Source: a virus
Lineage: Duplodnaviria; Heunggongvirae; Uroviricota; Caudoviricetes
IMG/VR virus record: IMGVR_UViG_3300047160_006104
Coordinates: 29,865 to 93,864 of that record
Direction: 5' to 3' (one strand)
DNA length: 64,000 bases
Shown here: piece by piece, positions 21,217 to 61,630 of the stretch
Numbering within the stretch: the stretch's first letter is position 1
Layout of the letters: each line of letters starts with the position of its first letter
Translations under genes and position numbers: made by a program
The notes under the pieces: generated by a model
The model's input: only the letters and a program-made list of their open reading frames with translations
Databases searched by the model: none
What the model was told of the DNA's origin: nothing

Positions 21217-22399
21217 CGTCGACCTCGGGTGTAACGGGTGCAACGGGTGTAACGGGCACGTAGCGTTGCCAGGCGTCGGTGAAGTAGCCGCGCCGATACC
21301 CGCGGGCGACCCGGCCGGAACGTCCACCCATGCGCTGCAGCCGGGGTTCGACACCGTAACCGGACAGCAGTTTGGCCATCGCCGCAGCTGTCAGCCCAGC
21401 CCACGGGGATTCCTCCAACCCTTTGAGTTCGGTGACGAGCCGTTCGGTGAACAGCATGTCCACACCCAGACTGTCGAACACCTCTTTGGTGTCGGCCAGC
21501 AGCTGCATCCCGCGTGACGCGACAGCCTGCACACCGCAAACCGTTACACGTGTTACACCCGTTACACGCGCCGTTTCGGGCCAGTGGCCACCCGCCAAAT
21601 CCGCGACCGACAGCAGCGGCTCCCACACGTCGGCGTCACGGTCGGAAATCTCGTCAGGCATTTCCGGCAGGTAATTCAGCGCGTGTTCGTGGACGAACTC
21701 AGCCCAAAACTGCAGCAGATCACGAAGCTGTTCAGCTTCGGCGGGGCTGGTGCGCCGGTTCCACCGCTCCACGGTTTCCCCGGGCGCGCGGCGCTGCATC
21801 CGTATCACCACCGACCGGGTCCGGATGGTCGCCGGAACATCGGAGACGTCCATCATCCCGGCCATCGCCATCGCGCAGTACACGGAGTAGCGGATGATCC
21901 CACCTTTTTTGCCGCCGAGGTAGCGGTTGACGGTGGCGTCGCGGGCGTGACCGGAATCCAAGATACGGCGCATCCGCTCGTAGCGTCCCCCGCCGCCGAA
22001 CACCGTGTCCAACTCGTCGTAAAGCATGGTCGGGCGACCGCCGTTGATTTTGCGTTGCTCCTCGTTGACGTGATACAGGTACGCCGGTGTCAAATCGGTG
22101 GTGAAGTCAGGGTTAGGTACCAGATGCTGGGTGACCGTTAATGCCCTGGTTTTGCCGCTGCCGGCTTCGGGTGACACGAACAGCAGCCGCGGTGTGGTGT
22201 ACCAGGCGTCCATGAACCAGGTGTGCGCGATCCACAGCACATGCGCTCGGCGGGCGTCGTCGTCGGGGTAGGCGACGTAGCGCGCTAAAAACGCGTCGAT
22301 CTGATCGAGGATTTCGCAGCCTAAATCGGGTGCGAATTCGTATGGTGCGCCCTGGCGGAGCAGGTATTCGAGTTGGTCCTGCAGGTCAGGCTGGGACAT
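21209..22399 (-). CDS. DUF3631-like P-loop NTPase (putative replication/primase-associated ATPase)
   Basis: Walker A 'SPEAGSGKTR'. 396 aa. Architecture common in actinophage replication modules. Confidence 0.55.
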   Translation of the reverse strand: MSQPDLQDQLEYLLRQGAPYEFAPDLGCEILDQIDAFLARYVAYPDDDARRAHVLWIAHTWFMDAWYTTPRLLFVSPEAGSGKTRALTVTQHLVPNPDFTTDLTPAYLYHVNEEQRKINGGRPTMLYDELDTVFGGGGRYERMRRILDSGHARDATVNRYLGGKKGGIIRYSVYCAMAMAGMMDVSDVPATIRTRSVVIRMQRRAPGETVERWNRRTSPAEAEQLRDLLQFWAEFVHEHALNYLPEMPDEISDRDADVWEPLLSVADLAGGHWPETARVTGVTRVTVCGVQAVASRGMQLLADTKEVFDSLGVDMLFTERLVTELKGLEESPWAGLTAAAMAKLLSGYGVEPRLQRMGGRSGRVARGYRRGYFTDAWQRYVPVTPVAPVTPEVDGE

Positions 22400-22520
22400 G
22401 CGTGGGCTCCTTAGCGGGTGCTTTAGCGGGTGCCGGTGCGGGTTCGGGTGCGGGTTGGCGCACGGGTGGTGTTACGGGGATGATTTCGATTTTGCGGGGG
22501 TTGTCGCCGATCTCGCCCAT
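22386..22520 (-). CDS. small Pro/Ala-rich protein
   Basis: 44-aa ORF with RBS GGAAGGAAACC. Its stop overlaps ATG of ATPase gene. Not in supplied ORF track (<60 aa). Confidence 0.3.
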   Translation of the reverse strand: MGEIGDNPRKIEIIPVTPPVRQPAPEPAPAPAKAPAKEPTHVPA

Positions 22521-22724
22521 GATGGTTTCCTTCCATGGCTTTAGCAGGCCTTACCCACGATTATACGCCAGTCGGGTGGCATAACGGAAGGGGGGGTAAA
22601 TGACAGCGGTGTGGTCTGTCGGTGCACCGGGCTAACATGACCCGAAGAACGACAATCCCCCGAGCCACGCAGACACCCGGGGGATCATCACAGCGATACC
22701 AACGCCAGAAGAAAGGCTACCAAA

Positions 22725-23729
22725 ATGACCGACAATCCCAGCACAGAACTCGCCGCGATGACCCATGAAATCGAACCCGGTCAAGACTTCATGCTGGTAC
22801 CCACCACCAAAGCGGTGCAGCGCCTCGAGATGCACCAGCGGGCCATGGAACACGCACACGCCATCGCCAAGGTGTATTCGTGGTCCGACGCGGTACCCGA
22901 CGCGTACTGCCGGTTCACCAAAGACAAGGACGGCAACGAGCTCGGCGACCGCGCCACCTACAACGCCACCATCGCCATCCTGCACGGCGTGTCCCTGGGG
23001 CTGTCGCCGGACGCGGCCTTGGAGAACATTTTCATGATCAAAGGCAAACCGGCCACCTACGCAAGGCTGATGGTGGCGTTGGTGAACCGCTGGATCGACG
23101 AACGCGTCGCGGCCGGCCGCACCACCGCCGACCCCGACCACGGCGACCGGATCTGGGAGATCGAGGCCTCGCCAACCAAATGCACCTGGGGCGCGCGGCG
23201 CGACGGCATCACCAAGTACTCGGACTGGACCTATGCGCGCGCCCAGACCGCCGGCTACACCACCAACAAGCTGTATCAGTCCATCCCGCAGGAGATGCTG
23301 ACCGCCAAGGCGCAAGCCGAGGTGTGCCGCATCGTGTTCCCCGATGTGATCCTGGGCCTGTCCCACTCGATCGAGGAACTACGGATGGAGGACGGCATCA
23401 GCGTGCAGCGGATGCCGAGCCGCCGCGGGCCGCGTGGTGTCGAGGCGCTGCGCGAGCTCGCCGAGAAGCAAACGCAAACCGGACCCGGCGACGCCGATCC
23501 CGCGGCGGCCACCGCGGTTTCCGAGGTGCCCGCCGATGTGGCCAGCACTGAACAACTCGAAGCGATCAAAAAACTAGCCCGACAACGCAAACTCGCCGGC
23601 CAGGCGATGCTCGATGACATCGCAGCGTTCCTGCAGCGCCAGCAACCGCTGGGTGAACTGCGCGATCTTAGCCACGAGGAGGCCCAGGCCTACCTCGACG
23701 GGCTGCCTGAGACTGCTGAGCAGCCGTAG
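22725..23729 (+). CDS. RecT-like single-strand annealing protein
   Basis: 'TIAILHGVSLGLSPDAALENIFMIKGKPATYARLMVALV' resembles RecT core. Acidic C-terminus. Confidence 0.55.
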   Translation: MTDNPSTELAAMTHEIEPGQDFMLVPTTKAVQRLEMHQRAMEHAHAIAKVYSWSDAVPDAYCRFTKDKDGNELGDRATYNATIAILHGVSLGLSPDAALENIFMIKGKPATYARLMVALVNRWIDERVAAGRTTADPDHGDRIWEIEASPTKCTWGARRDGITKYSDWTYARAQTAGYTTNKLYQSIPQEMLTAKAQAEVCRIVFPDVILGLSHSIEELRMEDGISVQRMPSRRGPRGVEALRELAEKQTQTGPGDADPAAATAVSEVPADVASTEQLEAIKKLARQRKLAGQAMLDDIAAFLQRQQPLGELRDLSHEEAQAYLDGLPETAEQP

Positions 23730-23809
23730 GAAAATTTCAGTGATGTAGTTCAAAGTGACCGGTGTGTCGCGGTTCCGTAACGGCGAGGTGAGGACTAGCC
23801 TTCCACAAG

Positions 23810-23850
23810 TTGAACCCCGGCCCTGAGAGGTTAGGTGGGGCCGGGGTTCA
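23810..23850 (+). terminator. rho-independent terminator-like hairpin
   Basis: 14-bp inverted repeat TTGAACCCCGGCCC ... GGGCCGGGGTTCAA after RecT-like gene. Confidence 0.55.
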
Positions 23851-23925
23851 AAACGGTAAGTGATCTAGCCTTCGGAAGGGCTTGTACCGTGTGGATGAGG
23901 ATACCACAATATATGGGCCACGCGA

Positions 23926-24717
23926 ATGGTTGACGCGCGTTATCCCGATCGTTGGTTATCCGATCGACGCATTCAACGGCTGACCGACCGGGGGCACCGG
24001 GCTTTTGTCAGCGCGCTCACATGGTCGGTGTCGAATCGCACTGATGGTTATTTGGAACCGGAGGATCTCTCGCTTATTCCTGGCTTTGCTTTAGGTTGCG
24101 AGGACGAGTTGGTTGCTTCCACGCTATTGGGTGAGTGTGGACGGGGATGGCTCCTTGAGCCATTCGCCTCAACGCAGACCAGTCGTGCCGAGCTGGAGAG
24201 CCTAGAGATGGCGCGAGCCAAGGACCGAGAGCGCAAAGCAAAATCTCGTGCCGGACCGTCCACTGGACTGTCCGCCGGACAGTCCAGTGGACAAGTGGAC
24301 GGACTACACAGGCAGGCCCGCCAGGCTTCGCCTGCCGGGCACCCTACGGATGCCCAAGGTGAGACTCACACCCAGACAGAACCCCAAGTCGTCACCCAGC
24401 CGGGAACGGCACTAGAGCCGGTGGGTTCTAAGCGACGATCCTCGCCGCGAACCCAGATCCCTGATGGTTGGCGCCCACCGCGGGAGGTCGCGCTGCGCAT
24501 GATGGAGAAATATCCACATCTGAATTTAGCCGCAGAAGTCGAAGCGTTCATCAACCATCACCAGGCACATGGCAACGGGATGGTCGACTGGACGAAAGCG
24601 TTCTGGACCTGGTTAGGAAATACCCGCAAATTCGGCGCTAATGGTGGCAACGGCCATGAGTTAAGCACTGTCGATCAAAAGGCTGCCGGCTGGCAGGCTA
24701 GAAAGGAACACGCATGA
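23926..24717 (+). CDS. hypothetical protein (possible replication-associated wHTH protein)
   Basis: 263-aa ORF. Ser/Gly/Gln-rich linker. Start uncertain. Confidence 0.4.
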   Translation: MVDARYPDRWLSDRRIQRLTDRGHRAFVSALTWSVSNRTDGYLEPEDLSLIPGFALGCEDELVASTLLGECGRGWLLEPFASTQTSRAELESLEMARAKDRERKAKSRAGPSTGLSAGQSSGQVDGLHRQARQASPAGHPTDAQGETHTQTEPQVVTQPGTALEPVGSKRRSSPRTQIPDGWRPPREVALRMMEKYPHLNLAAEVEAFINHHQAHGNGMVDWTKAFWTWLGNTRKFGANGGNGHELSTVDQKAAGWQARKEHA

Positions 24718-24971
24718 CGCACGCTGTAAACGAGCCGCAGCACTTTCCTTGGTTCTTACGGAAATCGTGCGGTGTTCTATGTGAACACTGCAGCGAACCG
24801 GTGGATAACGGTTATCTAACTTTCCGACCCATTAACGCCGAACACACCGCGCCGAACGGGGACGTATTCCCGTGTGAACATTGGCTGTGTCTCACCTGTT
24901 GTTCGAGGATCACGACGAAATGGACCCGTGATTCAGGGGTTGTTTACAAGCCGAACGGAGAATACCGGTGA
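24714..24971 (+). CDS. Cys-rich zinc-binding small protein
   Basis: CEHC...CEHWLCLTCC. ATGA coupling. Confidence 0.45.
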   Translation: MTHAVNEPQHFPWFLRKSCGVLCEHCSEPVDNGYLTFRPINAEHTAPNGDVFPCEHWLCLTCCSRITTKWTRDSGVVYKPNGEYR

Positions 24972-25339
24972 TCAGCCGCAACGATATTCTCGATGCCATC
25001 ACCAAGTGTGTGGGTTACGACCCGGTCCACGCCCCTAAACAGTCGGAAATTATTGAGAATGCCTGGGTCGAACATTTCGAGGCGTATCCCAGCATGAACC
25101 GCGACCAGTTGCTCACGGCCATCGCTGAGTACTACCGCACTCCACATCGGCCGTTCCCTCAGCCAGCCGATCTGAGCGTTATTGTGCGGATACGCCGCGA
25201 GGATGACTGGCAGCGCCGGTCATCTCCTGAACTTCAACCGCGGCCCGCAAGCGCCGAGCATCGCGCCAAATGTATGGCCGAGATCAGAGCGATTATCAAC
25301 AAGCAAGCGAACCGCTGGTCAATACCTGAGGCGTTATGA
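24968..25339 (+). CDS. hypothetical protein
   Basis: 123 aa, coupled. Confidence 0.45.
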   Translation: MISRNDILDAITKCVGYDPVHAPKQSEIIENAWVEHFEAYPSMNRDQLLTAIAEYYRTPHRPFPQPADLSVIVRIRREDDWQRRSSPELQPRPASAEHRAKCMAEIRAIINKQANRWSIPEAL

Positions 25340-25572
25340 GCAACTGGGCAAATCGCGAGGCCGACTTCGACGGGCCTGTCGATGAATGGGGCAGGCCAGC
25401 GACCGGTGATGAAGCCTTAGATATTGAGGTTCGTTTCCGGGTCAATGATTCGACTTTGTATCGCTTCACCTTCGAAAGTCCCACTCAGCAGGCCTATTGT
25501 GGCTCATGGCGCGAATCGCGCGAACAGGCCTACCGGGAAGGCCAGCAGTGGATGCGGGAGGGTCGACTGTGA
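25336..25572 (+). CDS. hypothetical protein
   Basis: 78 aa, coupled. Confidence 0.4.
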   Translation: MSNWANREADFDGPVDEWGRPATGDEALDIEVRFRVNDSTLYRFTFESPTQQAYCGSWRESREQAYREGQQWMREGRL

Positions 25573-25880
25573 CGACCCATCCGCAGTCGGTCCGCTGCCC
25601 GTGGTGTGCAGCGGCTCCCACGGAGCCGTGCACCGTGCCGGCAGGCCCGGGCGCACGCAAGAAACTCTTCCGCCAGGAGCCGCTGAAACTCACCTCGTGG
25701 CACCCGTCGCGGGTGGCCGCTGCGATGACCCTTGACGGCGTTGGCGAGGGTGAGATCGAGCGGCGCACCACTGCGGTGTTACAGGCCGCGACGGCGCGCT
25801 ACCGTGAGCAGCCTGGCTGCGCAGCCGAAACGGTGGTGGTGGCGCCTCAGCCGGCTGGAAAGGCTTCAGATGACCGATGA
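25569..25880 (+). CDS. hypothetical zinc-finger protein
   Basis: GTGA overlap start. 'RCPWCAAAPTEPC'. Confidence 0.4.
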   Translation: MTTHPQSVRCPWCAAAPTEPCTVPAGPGARKKLFRQEPLKLTSWHPSRVAAAMTLDGVGEGEIERRTTAVLQAATARYREQPGCAAETVVVAPQPAGKASDDR

Positions 25881-26157
25881 CACCAGACTGGGCCTGTTCG
25901 AGCTTCCTCGCGCGCCCCGTCCGGCGGCGATGGTGGTTCCTGAATGGGTTACCTGTGGGCGTTGCGGCGCGCGGTGGACTGGACTGGCTGTGTGTCACTG
26001 CTCAGGCTGCCATAAAACCTTCACCGCGATCAGCGCGTTCCAGATGCACCGCGTCGGTAGTCAGTGCGTTGATCCGGCTCGCGCGGGCCTGGTGGCGGTC
26101 CGTAGACAGTATTGGGCTGGCTGGCGGTACCCAGGTGAACGACCCGCTATTTCGTAA
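25870..26157 (+). CDS. hypothetical zinc-ribbon protein
   Basis: 'CGRCGARW...CHCSGCHK'. Confidence 0.4.
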   Translation: MTDDTRLGLFELPRAPRPAAMVVPEWVTCGRCGARWTGLAVCHCSGCHKTFTAISAFQMHRVGSQCVDPARAGLVAVRRQYWAGWRYPGERPAIS

Positions 26158-26380
26158 TACGGGAAACCAGGCGCAGACTGTGCGGCACGGGGGGAGCGTC
26201 GAGAGGCAGGCGCAGGTATGTGTGCGGTGTGTGGGTCCAAAGCAGCGATCGAAGGGCTGGATGTGTGTATCTGGTGTTTGGCGTGCATCAGCCCCAATAT
26301 GGTTGCTGGCTGCGAGTTGGGTCATCAGCGAGCAAACACTGTTGAGGTGGTTCACGTAAGACAACCGGCGGGCGTATAAA

Positions 26381-26878
26381 GTGCCCCAACACGTCAACCC
26401 TGAAACGGCTGTGATCGACGCGATCGGCGCGTTGGTGGCCGAGTCGCTGCTCGCGCAGCGGATGGATGACTACAACCGGCCGTGGACGGAGCGCTGCGAG
26501 CACTGCCACCACCAGTGGCACGGCCTGCGGTGCAGCACACCGGGAACCTTCGCAGGGTGTCTGTGTCCGGGAGCGTTCGCCACCGACGAAGAAATCCGGG
26601 CCTTCAAAAACCCCCCCTTACCAGATGACATTCAGGTACAGCGTTTAAGGGATGGGTTGGCTGACGCGCGGCGGTGGCGGGAGATGAATCGTCAGGAAAT
26701 CGCCGCGATTTACGGCATTCCTGCGCATCTTGTTGGCGCTCCGGAGTCGGCGGCGGAGTCGCCGGCGGGGTCAGCTGACCCTGAGGGAATGGGCTGGGTG
26801 GCTGTCTGTGTCGAGATCACTGCTGAACGGATGTCGCAGGGGCTAGGCAATCCTGGGTGTCTCGGACACGCGCGGTGA
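26381..26878 (+). CDS. hypothetical protein
   Basis: 165 aa. CEHCHHQWHGLRC motif. Confidence 0.45.
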   Translation: MPQHVNPETAVIDAIGALVAESLLAQRMDDYNRPWTERCEHCHHQWHGLRCSTPGTFAGCLCPGAFATDEEIRAFKNPPLPDDIQVQRLRDGLADARRWREMNRQEIAAIYGIPAHLVGAPESAAESPAGSADPEGMGWVAVCVEITAERMSQGLGNPGCLGHAR

Positions 26879-27087
26879 GGTGAGCATCGGCGGCTGCGGT
26901 CATACGGCGCGCGAGTTGGAGTAACTCGAATTCGTGGCCGTTGGGCATTTCGTAAGCCAGCGCATGTAGTTCGAGCGCGAACGCGCGTAACTCACGGTCA
27001 AAAGGTACGGGGGGCATCCGTACGACCTTAGTCAGCGCCGAAAACCGGTGCCAGCAACCACGCTGCTGTAATTATGTTAGGTTCGTC

Positions 27088-27774
27088 TCACCCGTGCAGC
27101 TCAAACAACGCCAGTTCGTGAGGCTGCGCGATGACACCGCCCGGTGGGCTCATCTCGTCAATCCCGTCGACGCGTTTCAGGTGAAACGGTGCCGCGGTCA
27201 AGTCATGCGGACGTTCCATATAACCCGCCCACGGCACATCAGGATTAGCCGACAGATACGCGGCGTAGTCGAACGTGTTGTCGGCTCCCGGGTAATTCGA
27301 CGCCAGCAGATACCGGCTGCCGCTATCTTCGAATTTGTTGACCATCCCCATGATTTGTTCGGTGGGCAGGTGCGCTAAAAAATCCCGGCATAGGATTGCA
27401 TGCACTTTCGGGAACCGTTTACGTGTCAACAGGTTCGCGCAAATAAATGTCATCGCTTTGTAGTGGCCTAGTTCGCGGCGGTTAGCGTCGATGATGGGCT
27501 GGTTCACGTCGATACCGATGTAGCTGTCCAAGCAACTCAGGTCGGTGTTCTTCAGCCAGCCGCAGTCACCGCACGGCGCGTCCAGCAGCATCGTAATGTC
27601 GTAGTGGCGCAGCAGACCCGGCAGCGCCGCACGTAGACCTCGGGTGTATTCCAGCGACGAGCCGGGACCATTAACGCTGCCGCCGTTGATGACCATGAAC
27701 ATCGGGTCTTTATGCATATCTGCCACGATTTGACCCCAGGCCGAAGCCTGCTGTGTGACAAAGTCGTCGGTCAT
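27088..27774 (-). CDS. class I SAM-dependent methyltransferase (paralog of 12044..12778)
   Basis: 'MLLDAPCGDCGWL', 'RDFLAHLPTEQIMGMVNKFEDSGSRYLLASNYPGADNTFDY' colinear with paralog. Confidence 0.55.
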   Translation of the reverse strand: MTDDFVTQQASAWGQIVADMHKDPMFMVINGGSVNGPGSSLEYTRGLRAALPGLLRHYDITMLLDAPCGDCGWLKNTDLSCLDSYIGIDVNQPIIDANRRELGHYKAMTFICANLLTRKRFPKVHAILCRDFLAHLPTEQIMGMVNKFEDSGSRYLLASNYPGADNTFDYAAYLSANPDVPWAGYMERPHDLTAAPFHLKRVDGIDEMSPPGGVIAQPHELALFELHG

Positions 27775-28172
27775 CGCCGGTAGTTGAGCAGCGACATGAC
27801 GCCACTGTAGGTGTTACGTAGCCGTTTGTCTGGCGACCAGGCCAGGTTCGGTAGGGCGTTGTTGGTGAGGTCACCGTCGGTGTTGATGGCATCGAAGCCG
27901 CGGGGCCGGGGCTGGTCGAACGCTTCCAACACGAGTCGGCGCACCGGGATTTGCCGGTATTGGCCGTCGCGCCACAAGTTGACCACCATCACCCCGTCGG
28001 CGGCGCGGATACGCGGTGTCAACATTTTCCCTTTGAGGTGCCGGGTGGAGCGTTCCCGCCCGCCGACGTCACGTTCGACTGACCGGACCCCGCCGTGGTC
28101 GCTGACTTCGTAGAGGCCGACCCAGCCGCGCGCCGGGAGCCACTGTTCTGTCATGGCGTTCAGCGTAGGCAC
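27771..28172 (-). CDS. HNH homing-type endonuclease (NUMOD4-like N-terminus)
   Basis: 'WLPARGWVGLYEVSDHGGVRSVER' NUMOD4 plus HNH-like tail. Similar N-terminus to HNH at 51398. Confidence 0.55.
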   Translation of the reverse strand: MPTLNAMTEQWLPARGWVGLYEVSDHGGVRSVERDVGGRERSTRHLKGKMLTPRIRAADGVMVVNLWRDGQYRQIPVRRLVLEAFDQPRPRGFDAINTDGDLTNNALPNLAWSPDKRLRNTYSGVMSLLNYRR

Positions 28173-28247
28173 CGCCGGTTGGCTGCCGGTGAACCGCGCC
28201 GCGGCGTGTCGCGCTTGACGCAGGTGCTAAGGGAGGATTCTTGGTTC

Positions 28248-28415
28248 ATGGTCACCATGATCTGCCGCGCGGTCCGGGCGGTCTACCGGTGGTTGTGGCG
28301 GGGACCGCTGCCTATCCCAGACGACTATCTGGAGGTGCCCAACACTGCGGCGTGTCACGCCTGTACGTGTGAGCGGCATTACGCCGACGACTACGACGAC
28401 GACCCCGCGTCATGA
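28248..28415 (+). CDS. small hypothetical protein
   Basis: RBS AAGGGAGGA. 55 aa. Confidence 0.35.
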   Translation: MVTMICRAVRAVYRWLWRGPLPIPDDYLEVPNTAACHACTCERHYADDYDDDPAS

Positions 28416-28522
28416 CTGACTGGCTAGCGCACCTCTCCGAGACGGCGGTCACCTGGATCATGCTGACCGCGTGCCTGATCGCGCTGACGGCCGGCCTGTT
28501 CGTCGCCGTCCTGCTGGGTTAA
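28412..28522 (+). CDS. 36-aa single-TM membrane peptide
   Basis: ATGA-coupled. 'VTWIMLTACLIALTAGLFVAVLL'. Confidence 0.3.
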   Translation: MTDWLAHLSETAVTWIMLTACLIALTAGLFVAVLLG

Positions 28523-28625
28523 GACGGCACCGCGCTGAATTGGCGGCGCACACTAGGCTCGAACTGCACCGTGTTGGTCAGCCCGTTGCCGAGTTGGCTG
28601 TAGTAGCCGAACTGGTGCGATGACT
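28522..28625 (-). pseudogene. orphan C-terminal fragment of a lectin/lyase-like gene (paralog of 28929..29729 C-terminus)
   Basis: Minus-strand translation gives QFGYYSQLGNGLTNTVQFEPSVRRQFSAVPS*, vs intact gene QFGYYSQLGAGLTNQVQFGPSVRRQFTTVPS*. Confidence 0.4.
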
Positions 28626-28647
28626 GCTGGCGCGCAAGGATCACACC

Positions 28648-28977
28648 ATGACCACCGTGGATGATTGCCCGCATTGCGGCCACGGGTGGGCGCTCCATTT
28701 GGAACGAACGAATTGTCTTGACTGCGGTTGCATGTGGACACTTCCGAAGCCGCCACCAGCGCCGCTCACCGAACGCGAGCTATTCGTGAGGCGTATTGCT
28801 GGCCTAATCCGTGAATCCGTGCGCGACCACTGCGATGGATACACCGACGAGTACGGGGTAGTGGACGGTGATGTCGATTTTATGAAGGTGGCTGAATCGC
28901 TCATCGACAAGTTCGGCCTTTCGCCTGCTCAACTGGGCACTGTCGTGAACTGGCGTCGCACCGACGGGCCGAACTGA
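28648..28977 (+). CDS. zinc-ribbon protein (CPHCGH...CLDCGC)
   Basis: 109-aa ORF flanked by the two copies of the duplicated ~100-bp segment. Confidence 0.4.
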   Translation: MTTVDDCPHCGHGWALHLERTNCLDCGCMWTLPKPPPAPLTERELFVRRIAGLIRESVRDHCDGYTDEYGVVDGDVDFMKVAESLIDKFGLSPAQLGTVVNWRRTDGPN

Positions 28978-29729: not shown

Positions 29730-30055
29730 GCGGTGGCCGTAATGCTGAGTTTGTTGGCGGACACGGTCCAGGTGCGCGGGGTGGGTCCGTTGTCCACGAT
29801 CGCCTTGGTGGTGTCGATAGTGACGGATTCTGGTGTGGTGGTGGTGGTCGTGATGGTCACCGGCACGGCCGGGAAATTCGCGGTCGTGGTGGCCCCGTCG
29901 GCGGCCACCAAAGGGACCGACACCGGACCGGCCTGCCCCGTCGTGGTGGTGGTGGTGGTCAGCACATCACTGCCGGCGATGGTGCCGGTGATCGTCTGAC
30001 CCGACGTGTAGGAGGTTTTGTCCCAGGACGCGGTGACGTTGAAGGTGTCAGGCAT
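29726..30055 (-). CDS. Thr-rich small structural-like protein
   Basis: Poly-Thr tracts. Shares 'VPLVAADGAT' with downstream gene. ATGA coupled. Confidence 0.45.
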   Translation of the reverse strand: MPDTFNVTASWDKTSYTSGQTITGTIAGSDVLTTTTTTTGQAGPVSVPLVAADGATTTANFPAVPVTITTTTTTPESVTIDTTKAIVDNGPTPRTWTVSANKLSITATA

Positions 30056-31271: not shown

Positions 31272-31283
31272 ATAGGAGAATCA

Positions 31284-52707: not shown

Positions 52708-52717
52708 GCGGGGCCGC

Positions 52718-53364: not shown

Positions 53365-53381
53365 AAAGGGGGAGTACAGAG

Positions 53382-53600: not shown

Positions 53601-53614
53601 GCGCCGCAAGAAAG

Positions 53615-53677: not shown

Positions 53678-53691
53678 AGTTTAACGTATTT

Positions 53692-54060: not shown

Positions 54061-54545
54061 GTGATCCACCGTTCTATGCGTTGGTATCCGGCGGTGCTGT
54101 GGGTCCAGTGGTAGACCCAAGCGGCGACGCCGTTGATGGTTTGGGTGGGGATGCGTTCGAACAGGTACGGGTGTCCTTCGATGTCGTCGAGGATGGGAAG
54201 TACGATGTCGACGGTTTCGGGTTTGAGGGTGACGGTGTATCCGGGGATGTGGGGGTAGGAGAATGTGGTGATGACGGCTGCGGGCCAGCCGTAGCCGGTG
54301 TCGTAGAGTTCGCCGTTGATGGCGTCGGCGGTGTGGTTGTCGCAGTAGGGTTCTAGTGTGGTCCAGCGGTGTTGGCCTGGGGCGAGTGTTCCGTAGATAA
54401 ACACCTTCGTCATATAACGCCCGAGTAGCTCCTCATCCTCGGGGGTTAGAACTCTTGGCTCCCTTACCTTTTCGATGTAGCGCCTACCCAGGTCTACGAG
54501 CGGCTGGGCGTCCTCGTACGTGATCGCGCTGCGCTTTTCACCCAT
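54057..54545 (-). CDS. gamma-glutamyl cyclotransferase / AIG2-like protein
   Basis: 'KVFIYGTLAPGQ' GGCT-fold signature. Confidence 0.5.
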   Translation of the reverse strand: MGEKRSAITYEDAQPLVDLGRRYIEKVREPRVLTPEDEELLGRYMTKVFIYGTLAPGQHRWTTLEPYCDNHTADAINGELYDTGYGWPAAVITTFSYPHIPGYTVTLKPETVDIVLPILDDIEGHPYLFERIPTQTINGVAAWVYHWTHSTAGYQRIERWIT

Positions 54546-54864
54546 CCTCATCCTCATCGTCATCGTCGTCGTTCAACGGTTCCCCGCAACCCACACAATG
54601 CTCAGCGTGTTCTTCCGCGCGACCGGCCGCATAAATCAACAACCCGGCCAAATCACGCGCCTCCCGCGGAGTCATTTGCAACAAGAACGGATAAACAGCA
54701 TGATCCTCATCGACGGCATCGTCAGGCGGATAAATCGGGCACTCCACCCGCCCTTGATGGATATAGACGCCCATCACCTCGTCGGTGAGCATTTCGAAAA
54801 TCCCGATCCGCGTCGGTTTCTCGTCGAACTGCCGCTCAAACGGCAACATCTTCTCATCACTCAT
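54538..54864 (-). CDS. acidic hypothetical protein (Asp/Glu tail, CVGCGE)
   Basis: ORF 54538..54927 with probable internal start MSDEK. Confidence 0.4.
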   Translation of the reverse strand: MSDEKMLPFERQFDEKPTRIGIFEMLTDEVMGVYIHQGRVECPIYPPDDAVDEDHAVYPFLLQMTPREARDLAGLLIYAAGRAEEHAEHCVGCGEPLNDDDDDEDEDG

Positions 54865-55537
54865 CGCTGTCCGCCTAAACCCATTCCTCGTCATCGCCCA
54901 GCAGTTCCTCAAGGTTGTCGCCCTCACTAGCTGGGCTCATCGTGATTTGTCCGATGATCGACATCAGACACGACGAAGTCGAGGAAGGCTGTCCCGGTCT
55001 CCCCATCAGCCAGAAGGTCGGAAACCAGTCCTTCCCAATCACTTTCGTCTTTGACTTTCACATCGCTTCCCAGACATCAGCCAAGTCATTGGCGCACTTC
55101 TCTATCACGGCGGCATCACGACGCAGACTGTCGCGGCGTTTCAGCAAATCATCGATCACCACTTGCAGGCTGTCGGCCTGACAGTCCAACATCTTGGCAG
55201 TCAATCGCAGCCGTGCCTCAGTGGCTGACAGTGTGCCGGTCATCTCATCCTTTTTCATCACTTCATCCGATTCATCCCGAGTATCCAGCGGTAAATCCCG
55301 TAGCAGATGACGCAGAGCCCCGCGAGAGCCAGCAGCAGAGTAATCATGTGACGTAAAGCTCTCTAGACAGGAAGATGAGAGCACTGACCACCCCACCCAA
55401 ACCCAGCGTGACTGTCTTGCCTGAGTTGTCGTACACAATTGTCGGCCGGTCCATGAGTCGGTGAATACCCGTTCCTCGGCGCCACCGCAGGCGCCGCAGG
55501 TTTTCGGTAACGGTCGCGAAAGGTTGGCCATACACCC

Positions 55538-55732
55538 TTACATCTCATCCTCGTCGACGTCGGCTTCGCGGGCAGCGCGAGCGCAGCACGCGGCCACCAC
55601 ATCAGCATCCATGTCGGCCGCTAACTCCTCGGACCGCTCAACAGCAGCCGCCAAGTCGTCATCGTTATCAGCCCTGATGATCCTCACCAGCACTTCAACA
55701 AATTCCCTCTCCGCAGCGGTTAACTTCACCAT
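55538..55732 (-). CDS. small acidic protein
   Basis: 64-aa ORF. Confidence 0.35.
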   Translation of the reverse strand: MVKLTAAEREFVEVLVRIIRADNDDDLAAAVERSEELAADMDADVVAACCARAAREADVDEDEM

Positions 55733-55778
55733 TTCTCTACTCCTAACTTTTCAAAAATTTTTCGAGCAACCGACTTTT

Positions 55779-56102
55779 TTAGGCCAGCAGGCCCGCGGTT
55801 TTCAGGTGGTTGGTTCCCATTACCCGCAGGGTGGCCCGGTCATCCACACTCAGCCGTCCCAGCCCCGGCAGCACATACCCTTGGGGATAGGTGTAGAAGC
55901 TGCGCACGATATAACCGTTCGCGGACAGCACCTGGGTACGCAGCGTGCCGCACTCATGCAGACACGCGAACACCCGATGAATCTCTCTGTCTTTACGGCT
56001 GATCCGCACATCGTGAGCACGCCACGCATGCCCATAGTCGCGGCACTGCAAAAACATGTCGGCTATGTCGTCGATCGTGTGATGCGGCTTCTCTTTAGCC
56101 AT
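55779..56102 (-). CDS. hypothetical protein
   Basis: Start MAKEK. RBS GAGAGGAACACAGG. Confidence 0.4.
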   Translation of the reverse strand: MAKEKPHHTIDDIADMFLQCRDYGHAWRAHDVRISRKDREIHRVFACLHECGTLRTQVLSANGYIVRSFYTYPQGYVLPGLGRLSVDDRATLRVMGTNHLKTAGLLA

Positions 56103-56722
56103 TAACCTGTGTTCCTCTCGTGTGCTGCGTTGTAGGCGGCGAGAACTTCGCCCTTGATCTGGCCGGTGGCTGCTTGGTCGAGGTCTGGCCGGTGCCGAAT
56201 CGCCCAACGCCGAACCTTGCTCCGCTCGGTCTTAGACAGCCCCAAACGGTCCTGATCGCCAATCAGAGCGCTCAGCGGAACTTCACCGTTATACCGGCCG
56301 GCCGCTTCACGGACCTGCTGCGCGGTGACCGACTCAATATCCTGGGTGACCCAACCCGTCCCCTCCAGAATCGGATCCTCAGGATGAACCTGCGCGTAAG
56401 CGTCGATGAGGTTTTGCTTCGGCAATCCCTTCATCCCCACCTCGAAACCCTGCTGTCTGCCCCAGGCTTTGATGCGGTCGCGTTGCGCTTTCTCCGCGCG
56501 GCCCTCGACCGACTTACGCGTGCTGCGCCGCAGCACCGGAGCGGCACGCGGCACTATCCGCGCCGCTGCGATCCAGCGCGCCACGTCGGCGTCGAACTCG
56601 CTTTCATGGGCACTGGTCAGGTCGATCTCGTAGTCGACACCTTTGACGCTGAACAGCACGGTGGCGTCGGCCAGCGACTCCTGATCCAGGTCGTCGCGGA
56701 TACGGATAACGACTTCACGCAT
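56102..56722 (-). CDS. Lsr2-like nucleoid-associated protein with duplicated C-terminal DNA-binding domain
   Basis: N-term 'VVIRIRDDLDQESLADATVLFSVKGVDYEIDL' = Lsr2 dimerisation domain. 'RIKAWGRQQGFEVGMKGLPKQNLIDAYAQV' and 'VRRWAIRHRPDLDQAATGQIKGEVLAAYNAAH' = two Lsr2-type DBDs. Confidence 0.65.
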   Translation of the reverse strand: MREVVIRIRDDLDQESLADATVLFSVKGVDYEIDLTSAHESEFDADVARWIAAARIVPRAAPVLRRSTRKSVEGRAEKAQRDRIKAWGRQQGFEVGMKGLPKQNLIDAYAQVHPEDPILEGTGWVTQDIESVTAQQVREAAGRYNGEVPLSALIGDQDRLGLSKTERSKVRRWAIRHRPDLDQAATGQIKGEVLAAYNAAHERNTG

Positions 56723-57014
56723 CGTTAGGGGCTGCTTTCTTCTCTAGGCGTTTTTTCTGCCGGTATTCGGCTGCGGCTTTGCGACACAGGTCGCACGCGC
56801 ATTTGTAATTCACGTAACCGACTAGCGAGCCATGGAGGTGCTCAGGGCATTCGTTGTCGGGGTCTTCGCGCCAGGCGTTGATGACTTTGTTGCGGTGTTT
56901 GCGGCGGCAGTCCTCGGAGCAGGTGATTGGCACTCCGCCGGGACGTGGTGGCACCACGTAGGGTTTTCCGCATTCGATGCAGATCATGTGGCGGGGGCCA
57001 GAGCGTTTGGGCAT
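56715..57014 (-). CDS. Cys-rich zinc-finger protein
   Basis: 'CIECG..CSEDC..C..C..C'. Confidence 0.45.
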   Translation of the reverse strand: MPKRSGPRHMICIECGKPYVVPPRPGGVPITCSEDCRRKHRNKVINAWREDPDNECPEHLHGSLVGYVNYKCACDLCRKAAAEYRQKKRLEKKAAPNDA

Positions 57015-57102
57015 TGGTTTCCTTCCGGTCCATTAGATTATACCTTCCCACTAACATGTCTAGCCACGCCCACATTCCCAGCGGTACACCGCGACCGCAG
57101 CA

Positions 57103-57504
57103 TCAGCCGCCACCGCCAACCGCGACCTTGTCGCCTTTGAGTGGTTTCATGATGCGAAGCTGCTCCTTTCGGGGTAAATACCTTCTCCATGTTTGAGCTG
57201 CCAGTCGGCGACGGTGCCGCCGATGTTCTGCAGCGAGTAGCCGGGATAGGGCACCGCCTGGTGGCGTTCGTAAGGTGTCATCGCCGCCAACTCCGCAAGG
57301 TGCATCAGGCCACGACACCACAAAGCACGTGCCCCACTCTTCGGACTGCTCGGTGTCCACGATGATGCCCACCGTTTCCAGCGGGTTGGACACATGCCGG
57401 CAACGCTTGCCGTCGATGTCGCGGAAATATTCAGTCCTGCCAGCATTAGGCAGGTAGTGAACGCGATCCCCAATCTGAAACATCACCATGTCACCTTTCG
57501 CCAT
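57103..57504 (-). pseudogene. apparently frameshifted small gene (two consecutive protein-like frames)
   Basis: Frame A good for MAKGDMVMFQIGDRVHYL...CFVVSWPD, then degenerates. Frame B good from ~57281 (MTPYERHQAVPYPGYSLQNIGGTVADWQLKHGEGIY). Confidence 0.3.
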
Positions 57505-57583
57505 AAAAATATTTTTGGGTGTGCGCCAGGAACGGACCCTTACCTCGTTCCCGGCGCACACCGTTCTCATCCCCGCGAAGGGC

Positions 57584-58690
57584 CTAGTTGACGGCGAGGA
57601 GTTCGCTGGCCTTGAAGTCGCTGGTCAGCGTGCGCCACGCAGCATTCTTCAAACCCACCTTGGACGACTGCGCCTGAGTGATGGTGCGAACCGCACGCGC
57701 ACCTGCCTCATCGCCGCCAGCACCGCGCACACCCTGGTAGTGGTCGACGAACTCGGTCACCGCATTGAAGAACCCGTACCGCGTCCCACCGAAAGAATCC
57801 TTGATCGTCGGGGATTCGACGAACAGTTTCAGGATGCCGTTGGCGGTGTTTTGCCGCATGGTCCGCGACCGGCCCTCACGCTGAGCCGCTGACAACTCGA
57901 CCAAATCCTCCGCGACCGCTTTGGCCTCATCGACGCTCATCGAGGTTTGGTAGAGCCGCTGGCACTCAGCCTCGAACTGGGCCTCGTATGTGAACGCGAT
58001 TCCCATGACGCGGCGCGCTTCCTCAAGCTGGTCACGCCAGTTCGCGGTGTGCCGAATCTTGAAGCTGGACACCGCTGAACCGATCGCTGCGGCCTGCGTG
58101 TTGGCGCACACGATCCGCACCGGAGTCACCAGGCCGGTCAACGCGGTCGACCCGTCGTGAGAGTTCAGCAGGGCCAGGTAGTAGTTTGTGGTGTCCACAA
58201 CCCCGTCGTGGCCGGTCAACTCCATCGTCTGCGGCAGCAGCATGGTCATAAAGACCTGGGTGTAGCCGCGCAGCGAGCCTACGGTTTGCCAGTTGCGTGC
58301 GCCGATTTCGTCGACGAACGCCTCACCGAATTGAGCCAGGGCCTCGTTTTGGGCGTGTTCGTAGCGTTCACCCACGGTTGCCGGCATGGTTTGCACGCGC
58401 CCGTTGACGGGGTTGTCGAACACGACGCCGTAGCGGTTTGAGACGGGGACGGCGGCGACGCGTCGGGTGGCGTCGTCGAACTCGTTGTCTTCGGGGCAGA
58501 TGTCGGCCCACAACCCGACTTTGCGGACGTTCCAGTTGGCGAGGTGTCCGGCTTCGAGGGCTTCTTGGGCGGTCATTTCGTGGCCGACGGGGGTTCCGAG
58601 GCGGTGCCAGGCGTCGACTCGGCCGTCTGCGGTGATGCGGGAGTCGGCGAATGCGGCGATGCCGTCGGTGATGGATAGTTCAGCGGGCAT
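57584..58690 (-). CDS. DUF932-like phage/plasmid protein
   Basis: 368 aa. Overall resemblance to DUF932 family. RBS GGAGGG. Preceded by conserved 42-bp promoter. Confidence 0.45.
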   Translation of the reverse strand: MPAELSITDGIAAFADSRITADGRVDAWHRLGTPVGHEMTAQEALEAGHLANWNVRKVGLWADICPEDNEFDDATRRVAAVPVSNRYGVVFDNPVNGRVQTMPATVGERYEHAQNEALAQFGEAFVDEIGARNWQTVGSLRGYTQVFMTMLLPQTMELTGHDGVVDTTNYYLALLNSHDGSTALTGLVTPVRIVCANTQAAAIGSAVSSFKIRHTANWRDQLEEARRVMGIAFTYEAQFEAECQRLYQTSMSVDEAKAVAEDLVELSAAQREGRSRTMRQNTANGILKLFVESPTIKDSFGGTRYGFFNAVTEFVDHYQGVRGAGGDEAGARAVRTITQAQSSKVGLKNAAWRTLTSDFKASELLAVN

Positions 58691-58716
58691 GGTTGCCCTC
58701 CTGTTCTGCGTTGGTA

Positions 58717-58758
58717 TCTATACCACAATCCTATAACATGTGTTGCCAACAAGTCAAG
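58717..58758 (-). promoter_or_regulatory. conserved sigmaA-type promoter (TTGACT-N18-TAGGAT), copy 1
   Basis: 42-bp block ~85% identical to 61370..61411, in same position relative to downstream gene start. Confidence 0.55.
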
Positions 58759-58761
58759 CCC

Positions 58762-59031
58762 TCATGTGAGGTCATCATTCGTGTCCACAATCAGAGAATC
58801 TCGTAACCTGACGTTGACGTGATCGAGTACCAGCAGGCAATACCGGGCGATGTCTTCTGCCTCGCCCTCAAGCACCAGACCGTCACCGGCTTCGTTGCCT
58901 AAAAACAACACACACGGACCCTCAAGCCCCTCATCGGGACACAACACCGCTTGGGCGCTGTCCAAGTCGTTTTCGCCCCACACGGCGTAGAGCGCACCGT
59001 TGGCGCTGCCCCATTCGTAGTGACTGCTCAT
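58762..59031 (-). CDS. hypothetical acidic protein
   Basis: 89 aa. Confidence 0.4.
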   Translation of the reverse strand: MSSHYEWGSANGALYAVWGENDLDSAQAVLCPDEGLEGPCVLFLGNEAGDGLVLEGEAEDIARYCLLVLDHVNVRLRDSLIVDTNDDLT

Positions 59032-59399
59032 TTATTCGAGCCTCCCATCTTGACCCATTGATGAAGCTGCGCATCCCAGCGGTACCCACTGACCTTGGTG
59101 TTGGTAACCCAAGGGGTCGCTTTCTTGGCGACCGACTTTTTAGGCGCAACCGCCTTTTTCACCGCTGGGCGCTCGTGGCGGCGCACCACATTCGTAATCA
59201 ACGCGGGCACATCAGCCAGTTCCTCGATGTAGGCCAGAAAACTGAACCCGGCGTGCCGCCCGGTCTGCACGGTCACCTCAAAGCTGCGGTAGCCCCATTC
59301 GGTCGGTTGGCGTTCCTGGTCGACTTTGACTTGTTCCCCGACCAAGCCGAGCATGTCCAACTCCCACTCGGTGTTATGCAACGTGAGACTGGTGATCAT
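59028..59399 (-). CDS. hypothetical protein with basic AKK-rich tail
   Basis: 123 aa. Confidence 0.45.
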   Translation of the reverse strand: MITSLTLHNTEWELDMLGLVGEQVKVDQERQPTEWGYRSFEVTVQTGRHAGFSFLAYIEELADVPALITNVVRRHERPAVKKAVAPKKSVAKKATPWVTNTKVSGYRWDAQLHQWVKMGGSNK

Positions 59400-59569
59400 C
59401 GCGCACCCGTTTCAGCCACGTCGGCTTCGCAGCAGTCGGACACATCGCACAACTGCACGTCGAATCCGGGTGCGCCCCAATACTCGTAGGTGCCGATACC
59501 GTAATCCACCGTTGTTACGCGGCACGGCTGACCGCACGCTTCACAGATCACCACTGCCGGCCTTTCCAT
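59396..59569 (-). CDS. 57-aa Cys-rich zinc-binding peptide
   Basis: 'CEACGQPC ... CDVSDCC'. Start inside 3' end of upstream gene. Not in ORF track. Confidence 0.3.
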   Translation of the reverse strand: MERPAVVICEACGQPCRVTTVDYGIGTYEYWGAPGFDVQLCDVSDCCEADVAETGAR

Positions 59570-59853
59570 CGCTCCATGTCGCCGCCAGCGGGTTCCTCGT
59601 CAGCCCACGGGTCGTCGAAGAACTCGCCGTCATTACCCAGCCACAGCAACTCGTCGACCACCGCGTCCGGGGCGACGGGCTCAACAACGCGCCCGGTCTC
59701 TAACCCGACCGCGTTACCCTCATCGGTTTCCCGCAGCACCTCCCACAAATTCGGGTTGAGCGGTTCATCAGAGCGGTGCAGCACGGTGAACGTGATCACC
59801 GTCTTAGACACGTTTTCCACCAACTTGACCTTCGCCTTAGCTTTCTTCACCAT
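59548..59853 (-). CDS. hypothetical protein
   Basis: 101 aa. Confidence 0.4.
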   Translation of the reverse strand: MVKKAKAKVKLVENVSKTVITFTVLHRSDEPLNPNLWEVLRETDEGNAVGLETGRVVEPVAPDAVVDELLWLGNDGEFFDDPWADEEPAGGDMERWKGRQW

Positions 59854-59873
59854 GTCGTCGTTCTCCCTTTGTC

Positions 59874-60206
59874 TCAGAAGTAGTCTGGGCAGAAGTGGAA
59901 TTCAGCCCCGTGTACGGCTAGCCGCACGATGCGGGTGTCTAAGCCGGTGGATGCGCCGATGTTGACGGCCTGACCTTCCGACATGCCTTTGCGCATGTCG
60001 TTGCACACCGTGCGGCCGAAGTCGGTGGCTTCGGCGACGCCGAACGGGGCACCGAGTTCATTGAGCATGTTCCAGTAGTTGTAGCCATCCTGGTCGCCCA
60101 TGTATCCACCGCCGTAGGGGTTAGCGTTGCCCGGGTACGCGTGGGCCGGCGCGGCGCTCAACGCGACCGCGAACGCCGCCACCACCGCTGCTTTCAGGTA
60201 TTTCAT
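59874..60206 (-). CDS. secreted small protein (signal peptide, two Cys)
   Basis: 'MKYLKAAVVAAFAVALSAAPAHA'. Start preceded by GGATTGGAACAGAC. Confidence 0.5.
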   Translation of the reverse strand: MKYLKAAVVAAFAVALSAAPAHAYPGNANPYGGGYMGDQDGYNYWNMLNELGAPFGVAEATDFGRTVCNDMRKGMSEGQAVNIGASTGLDTRIVRLAVHGAEFHFCPDYF

Positions 60207-60508
60207 GTCTGTTCCAATCCTTGCGGCGATAAATTATTTTTCTCGGGTGCGCCAAGTGGGGGCCGCAGTAGAAAACAGCCTCCGAGGCTTGGCTAGCACC
60301 CGTCCATCCTCTCTTCGGTCGGCGACAAGCAGGCTTTGGACACCCGCCCGCCGCTAGCGGATACCGACCCTTGTGGCATGGTCACGTAGATGCTTTTCGC
60401 CGGCGCGTCTGGCGGAACGATTGCTCGCGTAGCCGCCGCTGTTGATCGGCCCGCATATCTCGCAGATCACGCGCCAACCGACTTGCCCGTCACACACAAT
60501 GTCAACTC

Positions 60509-61354
60509 TCATGCCGACTTCGCCTTGGCAGCCTTGGCTTTGCCCTTGGCTTTACCGGCAGGGTGACGCGCAATCGAGGCCTCAAGTGCGGCCATCAGAT
60601 CGGCCACGTCTTCGACGGTTTCGGCTTCTTGGCGCACCGGCATGGGTGCACCGGCCTGTTTCGCGTCGAGCAACTCGTTGACCTTGGCCGCGTACTCATC
60701 GACCATCGACTCATCGACCTCGGAGAAATCAGCCACCATCTGTTCCATGAACTGTGTGGCCAGCTTTTTCACCTTCGGGTCAAGTTCGACCGGCTTTTTC
60801 AATGATGCGAAGTCAGCTTCACGTAGCTCGTCGCGCCACAGCACGTTTTGCATGACGATCACGTCACCGACAGGGCGCAGGATGGCCTGGTGGGTGCGCC
60901 CGCGCATGGTGTAGCGGACGACCGCGACTCGGCGGGATTCTTCCATGATGGTGCGGATCAGCGCATACCCTTCGGGCGCGTTCTTGTTGACTTTCACGTC
61001 GGGTTCCAGGTAGTACGGGGTTTCCAGTCGCAGCGGGTTGATTTCATCGAAGTTGACGAACGCTTCCACGTCGAAGTCTTTGCCGCTGTCGGTTTCGCAT
61101 TCGGCGAGTTCCTCGGCGGTGACCAGGATCGCGGTGTCGCCGCGCATCTGGCCGCGTACGAGGTCGTTGCGGTTGGGGATGGTTTCGCCGCAGTCGTTGC
61201 ACACGCACGGCATGGACACGCGCGAAGCGGAGCCGTCGTCGTGGACGTGGAACATGTTGAAGCTGATGGCGTGGGATTCGGTGGCCGCGTATTGGCGTAC
61301 GGGGACGCTGATGAAGGGTCCGAAGCTGATGTTGGTGTTGCTCATTGATCGCAT
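60509..61354 (-). CDS. ku: Ku (non-homologous end-joining DNA end-binding protein)
   Basis: 'ISFGPFISVPVRQYAA', 'YYLEPDVK', 'VVRYTMRGRTHQAILRP' colinear with bacterial Ku. Lys/Ala-rich tail. Confidence 0.75.
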   Translation of the reverse strand: MRSMSNTNISFGPFISVPVRQYAATESHAISFNMFHVHDDGSASRVSMPCVCNDCGETIPNRNDLVRGQMRGDTAILVTAEELAECETDSGKDFDVEAFVNFDEINPLRLETPYYLEPDVKVNKNAPEGYALIRTIMEESRRVAVVRYTMRGRTHQAILRPVGDVIVMQNVLWRDELREADFASLKKPVELDPKVKKLATQFMEQMVADFSEVDESMVDEYAAKVNELLDAKQAGAPMPVRQEAETVEDVADLMAALEASIARHPAGKAKGKAKAAKAKSA

Positions 61355-61369
61355 GGTGTCTGTTCCAAT

Positions 61370-61411
61370 CTCTATACCACAATCATACGGCATGTCACGC
61401 CAACAAGTCAA
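61370..61411 (-). promoter_or_regulatory. conserved sigmaA-type promoter (TTGACT-N18-TATGAT), copy 2, driving ku
   Basis: Paralogous to 58717..58758. Confidence 0.55.
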
Positions 61412-61604
61412 GTGCTAGCGCTGGGTTGCCTTTCGGGGGCCTACGTTTTCGCCGGGTATGAGCCAGCCCTTTGGTGGCGACGTATATAGCGTTGGGTTTC
61501 CATTGCGGATTTTTGCCGCTGGTGCGTCCTGAGATTTTGGGTGTCTGTTCCATACCTGCATCCTATCACATTTGTGTTGGCTTGACAACATAGGGTGGTG
61601 GGAT

Positions 61605-61630
61605 GTGTAACGGTGTAACGGGTGTAACGG
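61605..61630 (+). repeat. GTGTAACGG x3 tandem motif overlapping -10 region of TTGACA promoter (61583)
   Basis: Direct reading. Same triplet at 21229, 21539 (inverted), 44913. Confidence 0.6.

Follow-up and report, generated by a model that had tools for sequence, protein, structure and literature searches.

We analysed a 64,000-nt stretch of DNA (the window) from the IMG/VR virus record IMGVR_UViG_3300047160_006104 (Caudoviricetes; positions 29,865 to 93,864 of the record), part of a mycobacteriophage-like genome of about 114 kb, in which a 9-bp unit is repeated three times at each of four sites. Two of these triplets lie within one gene, repAM (21209-22399, minus strand), which encodes a 396-residue P-loop protein of the DUF3631/PF12307 family, the probable binder of the repeats. 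Site 1 (21229-21255, plus strand) reads GTGTAACGG GTGCAACGG GTGTAACGG, with one change in the middle unit, and site 2 (21541-21567, minus strand) reads GTGTAACGG GTGTAACAC GTGTAACGG. The two other sites are far from repAM and are called orphan sites below: site 3 (44914-44940, plus strand), GTGTAACAG GTGTAACGC GTGTAACGG, and site 4 (61605-61630, plus strand), GTGTAACG GTGTAACGG GTGTAACGG, in which the spacing is 8 and then 9 bp. Re-reading of the sequence confirmed the triplets at the four loci of the original prediction, with coordinates right to within 1-2 nt. Only the 27-bp cores are common to the four sites, and their flanks do not align with each other.

All motif scans cover the 64-kb window. 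Exact GTGTAAC heptamers occur 11 times and all 11 copies fall in the four triplets. The count in shuffled sequence was 4.3 ± 2.1, and a count of at least 11 was reached in 0 of 100 shuffles. In the same way, none of 300 dinucleotide shuffles gave any 7-mer with triplets of 8-10-bp spacing at two or more loci. As the shuffles never matched either the heptamer count or the triplet pattern, chance is excluded for the triplets. Mismatch-tolerant scans of the window found no doublets or triplets beyond the four sites, and matches to the unit with one mismatch were modestly enriched (24 compared to 14.3 expected). A single near-iteron, GTGTTACGG (22469-22477, plus strand), is located 70 nt upstream of the repAM start codon; given this modest enrichment, it could be an autoregulatory site or a chance match.

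The original prediction had placed site 2 inside an ATPase gene, where it encodes V-T-x peptide repeats. This is correct, but site 1 also lies inside the same gene. Site 2 codes for RVTGVTRVT within the helix formed by residues 273-290. Site 1, which reads CCGTTACAC CCGTTGCAC CCGTTACAC on the gene strand, codes for the C-terminal tail VPVTPVAPVTP and ends about 3 nt ahead of the GAGG ribosome-binding site of the downstream gene. The spacer of 285 bp between the two inverted sites (21256-21540) codes for the C-terminal winged-helix-like domain, including the hairpin residues 353-369. The downstream gene, orfX (20740-21216, minus strand, 158 amino acids), has a GTG start that overlaps the repAM stop codon and gave no Pfam match.

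The translation of sites 1 and 2 as VTG/VTP-type repeats raises the question of whether the repeats are a by-product of coding, or of chance, all the more so as 9-bp GTGTAAC repeats elsewhere often correspond to collagen-like G-V-T coding. This explanation is effectively refuted. Sites 3 and 4 are intergenic, and the DNA core is unchanged between sites 1 and 2 although these are translated from opposite strands of the motif. Across the homologues, moreover, the encoded residues vary (V-A, V-T and others) but the DNA unit stays in place, and the pattern was obtained in 0 of 300 shuffles.

The repAM product matches the Pfam family PF12307 with an E-value of 3e-50 (171.3 bits, for a cut-off of 24) over residues 200-380 and carries the Walker A motif SPEAGSGKT. 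It has 3173 homologues at E ≤ 1e-10, some of which present a fusion to a Toprim domain. Among 50,697 phage records, RepAM gave a tblastn match in only one, and it is thus rare among isolated phages. PF12307/DUF3631 corresponds to RepAM, the replication initiator of the actinomycete integrative conjugative element (AICE) pMEA300 (PMC3218068). According to the summary given in PMC2440964 of the work of te Poele et al. (2006, Microbiology 152:2943), purified pMEA300 RepAM binds 8-bp identical repeats located in the coding sequence of its own gene. The same summary names the repeat region at the 3′ end of repAM as the putative origin and mentions relatives in Mycobacterium prophages, e.g. phiRv2 (PMC2440964).

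The AlphaFold2 model of the repAM product is confident, with a mean predicted local distance difference test score (pLDDT) of 87.8 and a predicted template modelling score (pTM) of 0.81; the tail VPVTPVAPVTP encoded by site 1 is disordered in it (pLDDT below 50). A Foldseek search of the model against the PDB retrieved MCM subunits, ORC/Cdc6, RuvB, the helicase region of the NrS-1 primase-polymerase and the PrimPol primase-helicase of African swine fever virus. A RepAM profile search of the PDB sequences gave no match, so that this likeness emerged by fold search only. From the model and the Foldseek matches, RepAM is predicted to be an AAA+-type initiator or helicase-like ATPase followed by a C-terminal helical and beta-hairpin domain of winged-helix-like fold.

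The locus was compared with 86 other RepAM loci (87 with the window), and 82 of them (L121-L202) were searched without bias for triplets of any 6-mer at a spacing of 7-13 bp. This search returned 107 clusters in 513 kb, 69 of which fall between −400 and +200 nt of the gene end. With one mismatch allowed, a triplet was found at an internal and/or a 3′ position in 78 of the 87 loci. The internal position (−400 to −230, about 310 nt before the gene end) is occupied in 45 of the 87 loci, always in the TGTxyCG orientation on the gene strand, and the 3′ position (−80 to +300 of the gene end) in 69 of 82, in inverted orientation. Sites 2 and 1 of the window are at about −316 and −5 nt of the end of the family alignment, inverted with respect to each other. 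They are the conserved inverted triplet pair of the RepAM family.

The unit common to these loci is TGTxyCG(G) with a 9-bp period, in which xy is AA, AG, GA, TA, TT, TG, TC or AC. The closest homologues (61-64% identity) are encoded in small int-XRE-xis-RepAM islands and present the same triplet layout, with three copies of TGTAACGGC (L204) or of TGTAGCGGC (L207-209), and CCGCTACC repeats lie at the end of the RepAM gene in a Streptomyces AICE-type plasmid of 14 kb. repAM is the sole gene constantly linked to the triplets, the other neighbours varying among loci. As an example, orfX was detected by tblastn in 4 of the 86 RepAM loci and is a conserved partner in the closest homologues only; its product was rejected for this reason as the iteron binder. 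Direct pattern scans were largely uninformative: the scan of viral sequences for GTGTAAC triplets was swamped by collagen-like G-V-T coding and the scan of genomes by repeats of Microcoleus and other cyanobacteria, leaving few useful high-GC matches.

We then asked which residues of RepAM vary with the variable dinucleotide, by calculating the mutual information between the alignment columns and the iteron class for the 64 homologues with an unambiguous class. The top columns, residues 283 and 286, are trivial, since they are encoded by the in-gene iteron itself. The next columns correspond to residues 354, 364 and 365 (z = 11.2, 11.0 and 9.9), then 366, 356 and 360, all of them on the hairpin formed by strands 353-356 and 364-369 and not encoded by iteron DNA. 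A unit with T or G as its fourth base goes with T at residue 364, and one with A goes with V, I or P; at residue 354, TGTTCC corresponds to K and TGTTTC to Q, and residue 365 is P for TGTTGC. The RepAM of the window, with L354, V364 and A365, is consistent with the TGTAAC class. The nearest sequence neighbour has the same iteron class in 32 of the 64 cases only, and when pairs of discordant class were contrasted with pairs of concordant class at similar overall identity, the same columns ranked first. The signal is therefore not simply phylogenetic. This correspondence between residues and dinucleotide looks like a code and, in line with the biochemistry of pMEA300, suggests on computational grounds that RepAM itself recognises the repeat units.

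RepAM is the best candidate binder because the motif tracks repAM, because it covaries with residues 354, 364 and 365 and because pMEA300 RepAM is reported to bind the repeats of its own gene. We therefore consider that the GTGTAACGG triplets are probably iterons, i.e. predicted binding sites, of the RepAM initiator encoded at 21209-22399, and that sites 1 and 2 presumably have an origin function in the phage. In the mechanism that we propose, the beta-hairpin 353-369 of the C-terminal domain would read the variable middle of TGTxyCG(G), and the three units at 9-bp spacing would accommodate three RepAM protomers per triplet. Two oppositely oriented assemblies, at sites 2 and 1, would define the origin, with the spacer as its presumed core, where the RepAM ATPase would open the DNA or load a helicase. 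The physical linkage of the initiator gene to its origin would let their specificities co-evolve. Orphan sites 3 and 4 would then be, most simply, further targets of RepAM.

The original prediction had interpreted the triplets as operators, or stoperator-like sites, of a regulator with several genomic targets and had proposed the XRE repressor (45313-45648) or the Lsr2-like protein (56102-56722) as binder. The first step of that argument holds, as a thrice-repeated 9-bp unit at dispersed sites points to a sequence-specific DNA-binding protein with several targets; the step from there to a repressor-operator network is not supported, and a regulatory role is possible for sites 3 and 4 only. In favour of operators, the XRE gene is 370 bp from site 3, site 4 lies in a promoter-rich region and Lsr2 is encoded in the window. 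Against operators of XRE, Lsr2 or another helix-turn-helix protein, the motif accompanies DUF3631/RepAM genes, among varying neighbours, in 78 of 87 loci, its dinucleotide covaries with RepAM residues, and the XRE proteins beside the closest RepAM homologues are unrelated to that of the window. Lsr2 prefers AT-rich DNA without a defined motif, which also counts against it. The stoperators of cluster A mycobacteriophages are tens of single 13-14-bp sites, mostly intergenic, oriented with transcription and bound by the immunity repressor. The phage triplets resemble them in that an asymmetric short motif, probably with one phage protein as binder, is scattered across a mycobacteriophage genome, but there are exactly four clusters, not tens; each is a triple direct repeat of a 9-bp unit and not a single asymmetric site of 13-14 bp, and two of them are in the coding sequence of one gene, in opposite orientations. 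We therefore regard operators as very unlikely.

Several results weigh against the proposal that the triplets are RepAM iterons at an origin. No AT-rich unwinding element was found near sites 1 and 2, where the G+C content of 60-bp segments around and between the sites is 0.57-0.75 (window mean 0.62, 5th percentile 0.50), which weakens the classical picture of an iteron origin. The CTTGAT nick motif proposed for pMEA300 (pC194-like) is absent within 2 kb of any site. A compact hairpin was not found either, as pairing of the triplets is possible only with a loop of 285 nt between them, at a fold z of −1.67. The window encodes a second replication-initiator-like protein (23926-24717, PHROG E-value about 1e-10). 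The in-gene location of the triplets is not obligatory, since they are missing from the RepAM gene of a phage contig (L121) whose RepAM is 60% identical. Concerning the orphan sites, the other RepAM loci showed no such triplets within ±10 kb and so offer no comparative support for a function of sites 3 and 4. A diverged relative of the phage was not found either, as IMG/VR gave no relatives of the Ku gene or of the tRNA-adjacent genes. The predicted fold, for its part, argues for a helicase or initiator mechanism over the rolling-circle mechanism discussed for pMEA300.

The L121 contig carries instead an inverted pair of TGTAAC triplets 3.6 kb from its RepAM gene, in an intergenic position between the small terminase and methyltransferase genes (region at 5682-6200 and 6296-6459 of that contig). 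Since this pair sits away from the RepAM gene, iteron sets can relocate within phage genomes. Its position directly upstream of the small terminase gene could also be taken as a sign that the triplets are recognition sites of the small terminase in packaging. In the window, a ParB-like protein (17802-18662), whose gene is 2.5 kb away from sites 1 and 2, could suggest centromere-like (parS) sites. The relatives of the L121 terminase are without TGTAAC triplets, however, other triplets being present in L214 and L221. The ParB_N match of the window protein is 18.8 bits, under the Pfam cut-off of 26.3, and the motif is a direct triplet and not a palindrome. Most of the triplet-bearing RepAM loci are in addition small integrative elements that have neither ParB nor terminase. 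We consider both the parS and the terminase explanations extremely unlikely.

The iteron interpretation leaves the orphan sites to be explained, and their surroundings differ. Site 3 is located directly 3′ of a tRNA-Arg(CCG) gene, as the original prediction had noted for a tRNA-like gene, and starts 5 nt past the tRNA end (44908/9). The tRNA (44831-44908, plus strand) was identified by ARAGORN as a 79-nt gene and matches Rfam RF00005 with 50.9 bits. Its anticodon loop is enlarged, with 9 nt aligned where the Rfam model has 4, and this phage tRNA may be non-canonical, for instance of the frameshift-suppressor type. Site 3 lies in the 236-bp gap between this gene and a leftward small open reading frame (ORF) followed by the XRE gene, and the scan found no promoter-like or terminator-like signal near it. 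The possibility that tRNA, site 3 and XRE gene are a remnant of an int-XRE-xis-RepAM island was rejected, as the XRE proteins are unrelated and tRNAs are absent from the islands. In the same gap, 13 nt past site 3, a perfect tandem of GGTGATGATCGG ×2 (44953-44975) stands between the tRNA and the XRE operon; it has no further exact copies in the window and is a candidate operator for a different protein.

Site 4 is in a promoter-rich intergenic region of about 550 bp between the Ku gene and rightward genes. The original prediction had placed the −10 position of a TTGACA promoter over it. The TTGACA hexamer is present at 61582-61587 on the plus strand, but the promoter scan called no promoter with a −10 box overlapping site 4, and the hexamers 17-18 nt downstream (GTGTAA/TGTAAC) lack the A2 and T6 of a −10 box. 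A leftward promoter-like site was found in its place on the minus strand (61588 to 61560, TTGTCA-17-TAGGAT, with TG before the −10), with 17 nt between its −35 and site 4. The −10 is followed after 6 nt by an ATG (61553), which would give a possible leaderless ORF of 45 amino acids (61415-61553) upstream of Ku. This promoter-like site may be linked to site 4. The sequence (C/G)GTGCGTCCT occurs three times around site 4 (61521-61530, 61653-61662 and 61699-61708), in the regulatory region upstream of Ku, without an exact copy elsewhere, and two copies of GGCTTGACAA (61579-61588 and 61735-61744) are each accompanied by divergent promoter-like sites.

If RepAM binds sites 3 and 4, possible roles by analogy with known systems would be a crr-like cis element of replication, handcuffing or, at site 4, modulation of a promoter. 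Tentatively, and with a good deal of doubt, the orphan triplets can be proposed as functional remote targets of RepAM, in replication control or in transcription of the Ku region and the tRNA-XRE region, together with a swappable hairpin code at residues 354, 364 and 365 that diversifies replicon incompatibility. Alternatively, only the in-gene pair may be functional, and sites 3 and 4 may be non-functional relics: recombination with other RepAM replicons could, for instance, have left them behind, or the module may formerly have occupied these positions. Mismatch-tolerant scans found no inverted partner for either orphan, which agrees with relics, as do the other RepAM loci, free of orphan triplets within the flanks examined, and the L121 pair, which shows that iteron sets can move. 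On the other hand, both orphans keep three units, perfect GTGTAAC cores and the correct spacing, whereas relics are expected to decay; both are intergenic and not randomly placed, and no flanking homology to repAM was found. Relics are an unlikely explanation. The sequence of site 4 recurs in two further metagenome contigs of the same phage (L342 and L343), which are 100% identical and thus uninformative on constraint.

Among the known systems, pMEA300 is the closest to the phage locus. Both RepAM proteins belong to PF12307/DUF3631, and both genes have short identical repeats, direct and inverted, in their 3′ part and just downstream. The elements of the pMEA type are, however, integrative conjugative elements of 13-23 kb, while the host of the present module is a mycobacteriophage-like genome of about 114 kb in which integrase, xis and tra genes are not adjacent to repAM. 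The phage has 9-bp-spaced units in two triplets 285 bp apart where pMEA300 has a compact hairpin, and it carries two extra orphan triplets 23 and 40 kb away.

For these orphans, the best functional analogy is found in satellite phage P4, in which the C-terminal domain of the alpha protein reportedly binds short iterons, TGTTCACC, at ori and at the distant crr, the latter being needed in cis. Both systems would combine a primase/helicase-type initiator with a second, remote iteron cluster. The likeness proposed here is one of function; P4 alpha has its own primase domain, and ori and crr are about 4.5 kb apart compared to 23-40 kb in the phage. Remote iterons are also used for handcuffing in P1 (oriR/incA), and the phage clusters at sites 3 and 4, distant from repAM and built on its iteron core, may act in cis on replication or copy control in a comparable way. 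In lambda (O/ori-lambda), in N15 (the repA-internal ori) and in the Staphylococcus aureus pathogenicity islands (SaPI Rep-ori), the iterons are within or immediately 3′ of the gene of their binder. As would be the case for the phage RepAM, initiator and origin are inherited as one cassette whose specificity co-evolves, but the proteins are of other families and an AT-rich unwinding region is adjacent, which is not evident in the phage.

DUF927 helicase and Prim-Pol modules (L084, L237 and L204) showed a similar arrangement, in which a helicase/primase-type gene has, directly 3′ of it, two 9-10-bp triplets in inverted orientation, separated by about 200-340 bp. In two unrelated elements, DUF927 (PF06048) genes are followed by inverted GGTGTAACC ×3 or TGTAACGGC ×3 (L084, 4297-4521; L237, 1181-1566). 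Their units use GTGTAAC/TGTAACGGC cores, like the phage, although the Pfam families differ (PF06048 and PF09250). The TGTAAC triplet format thus seems common to a wider class of helicase-type initiators. In the RepAM island of L204, an 800-residue Prim-Pol gene is followed by the inverted triplets GGCGAGTCAG ×3 (16259-16291) and TGACTCGCC ×3 (16495-16526), which points to a second iteron origin, alike in format, within a single element.

RepAM was already known from work of 2006 to bind repeats of its own gene, and the phage system is most likely a further example of a known, little-studied system. The family-wide conservation of position, the TGTxyCG(G) classes, the covariation with the hairpin and the AAA+ initiator-like fold appear to go beyond the published accounts, as does a RepAM replicon with two orphan triplets in a phage of about 114 kb. 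For this uncultured phage, the speculation on a repressor-operator network is replaced by a concrete assignment, namely a probable replication start and the protein that would recognise it. The in-gene pair of iterons, reported from a few elements of Amycolatopsis and Saccharopolyspora, becomes a hallmark of the DUF3631 family, which has more than 3000 homologues and is still annotated as of "unknown function". Origins and incompatibility types would be predictable from sequence in actinobacterial prophages, AICEs and plasmids, and the covariation of hairpin and iteron may be a starting point for engineering orthogonal mycobacterial replicons. The orphan triplets, if functional, would give an example of a phage initiator with remote targets.

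The window also encodes minor tail proteins, glycosyl- and methyltransferases, RecE, RecT and an endolysin. When 53 kb of the window were compared by megablast with 50,697 phage records, no near-identical relative was found, and the best protein matches, about 49% identical, are to Mycobacterium phages and M. abscessus prophages. Host-like mycobacterial genes are present, coding for a PPE-family protein (41315-42697), a DUF732 protein (59874-60206), Lsr2 (56102-56722) and Ku (60509-61354). Contigs with genes of this phage were found in three other samples (ENA ERZ27257286, ENA ERZ27257246 and JGI 3300031912; L203, L342 and L343). L342 and L343 span the Ku/site-4 region at 100% identity and L203 covers the DUF732 gene only, so that the phage recurs across samples.

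Three further features of the window were noted. A 54-nt inverted repeat, 98% complementary, has its arms at 25831-25884 and 43525-43578, 17.6 kb apart. Both arms span a ribosome-binding site and an ATG start (…GGAAAGGCTTCAGATGACCGATGACACC), and they bracket the glycosyltransferase/PPE region; the repeat may mark the boundary of a module that is invertible or has been duplicated. The two halves of PHROG 21315, a ParB-like N-terminal part and a methyltransferase part, are on opposite strands about 1.2 kb apart (15920-16576, plus strand, and 17802-18662, minus strand), near a 30-nt inverted repeat of 90% identity (17031-17060/18638-18667), which may correspond to an inversion or to a split gene. 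Finally, an ORF of 1843 amino acids (3075-8606) contains nested 108-nt and 891-nt repeats, has almost no PHROG match and codes for an unusually repetitive tail- or fibre-like protein.

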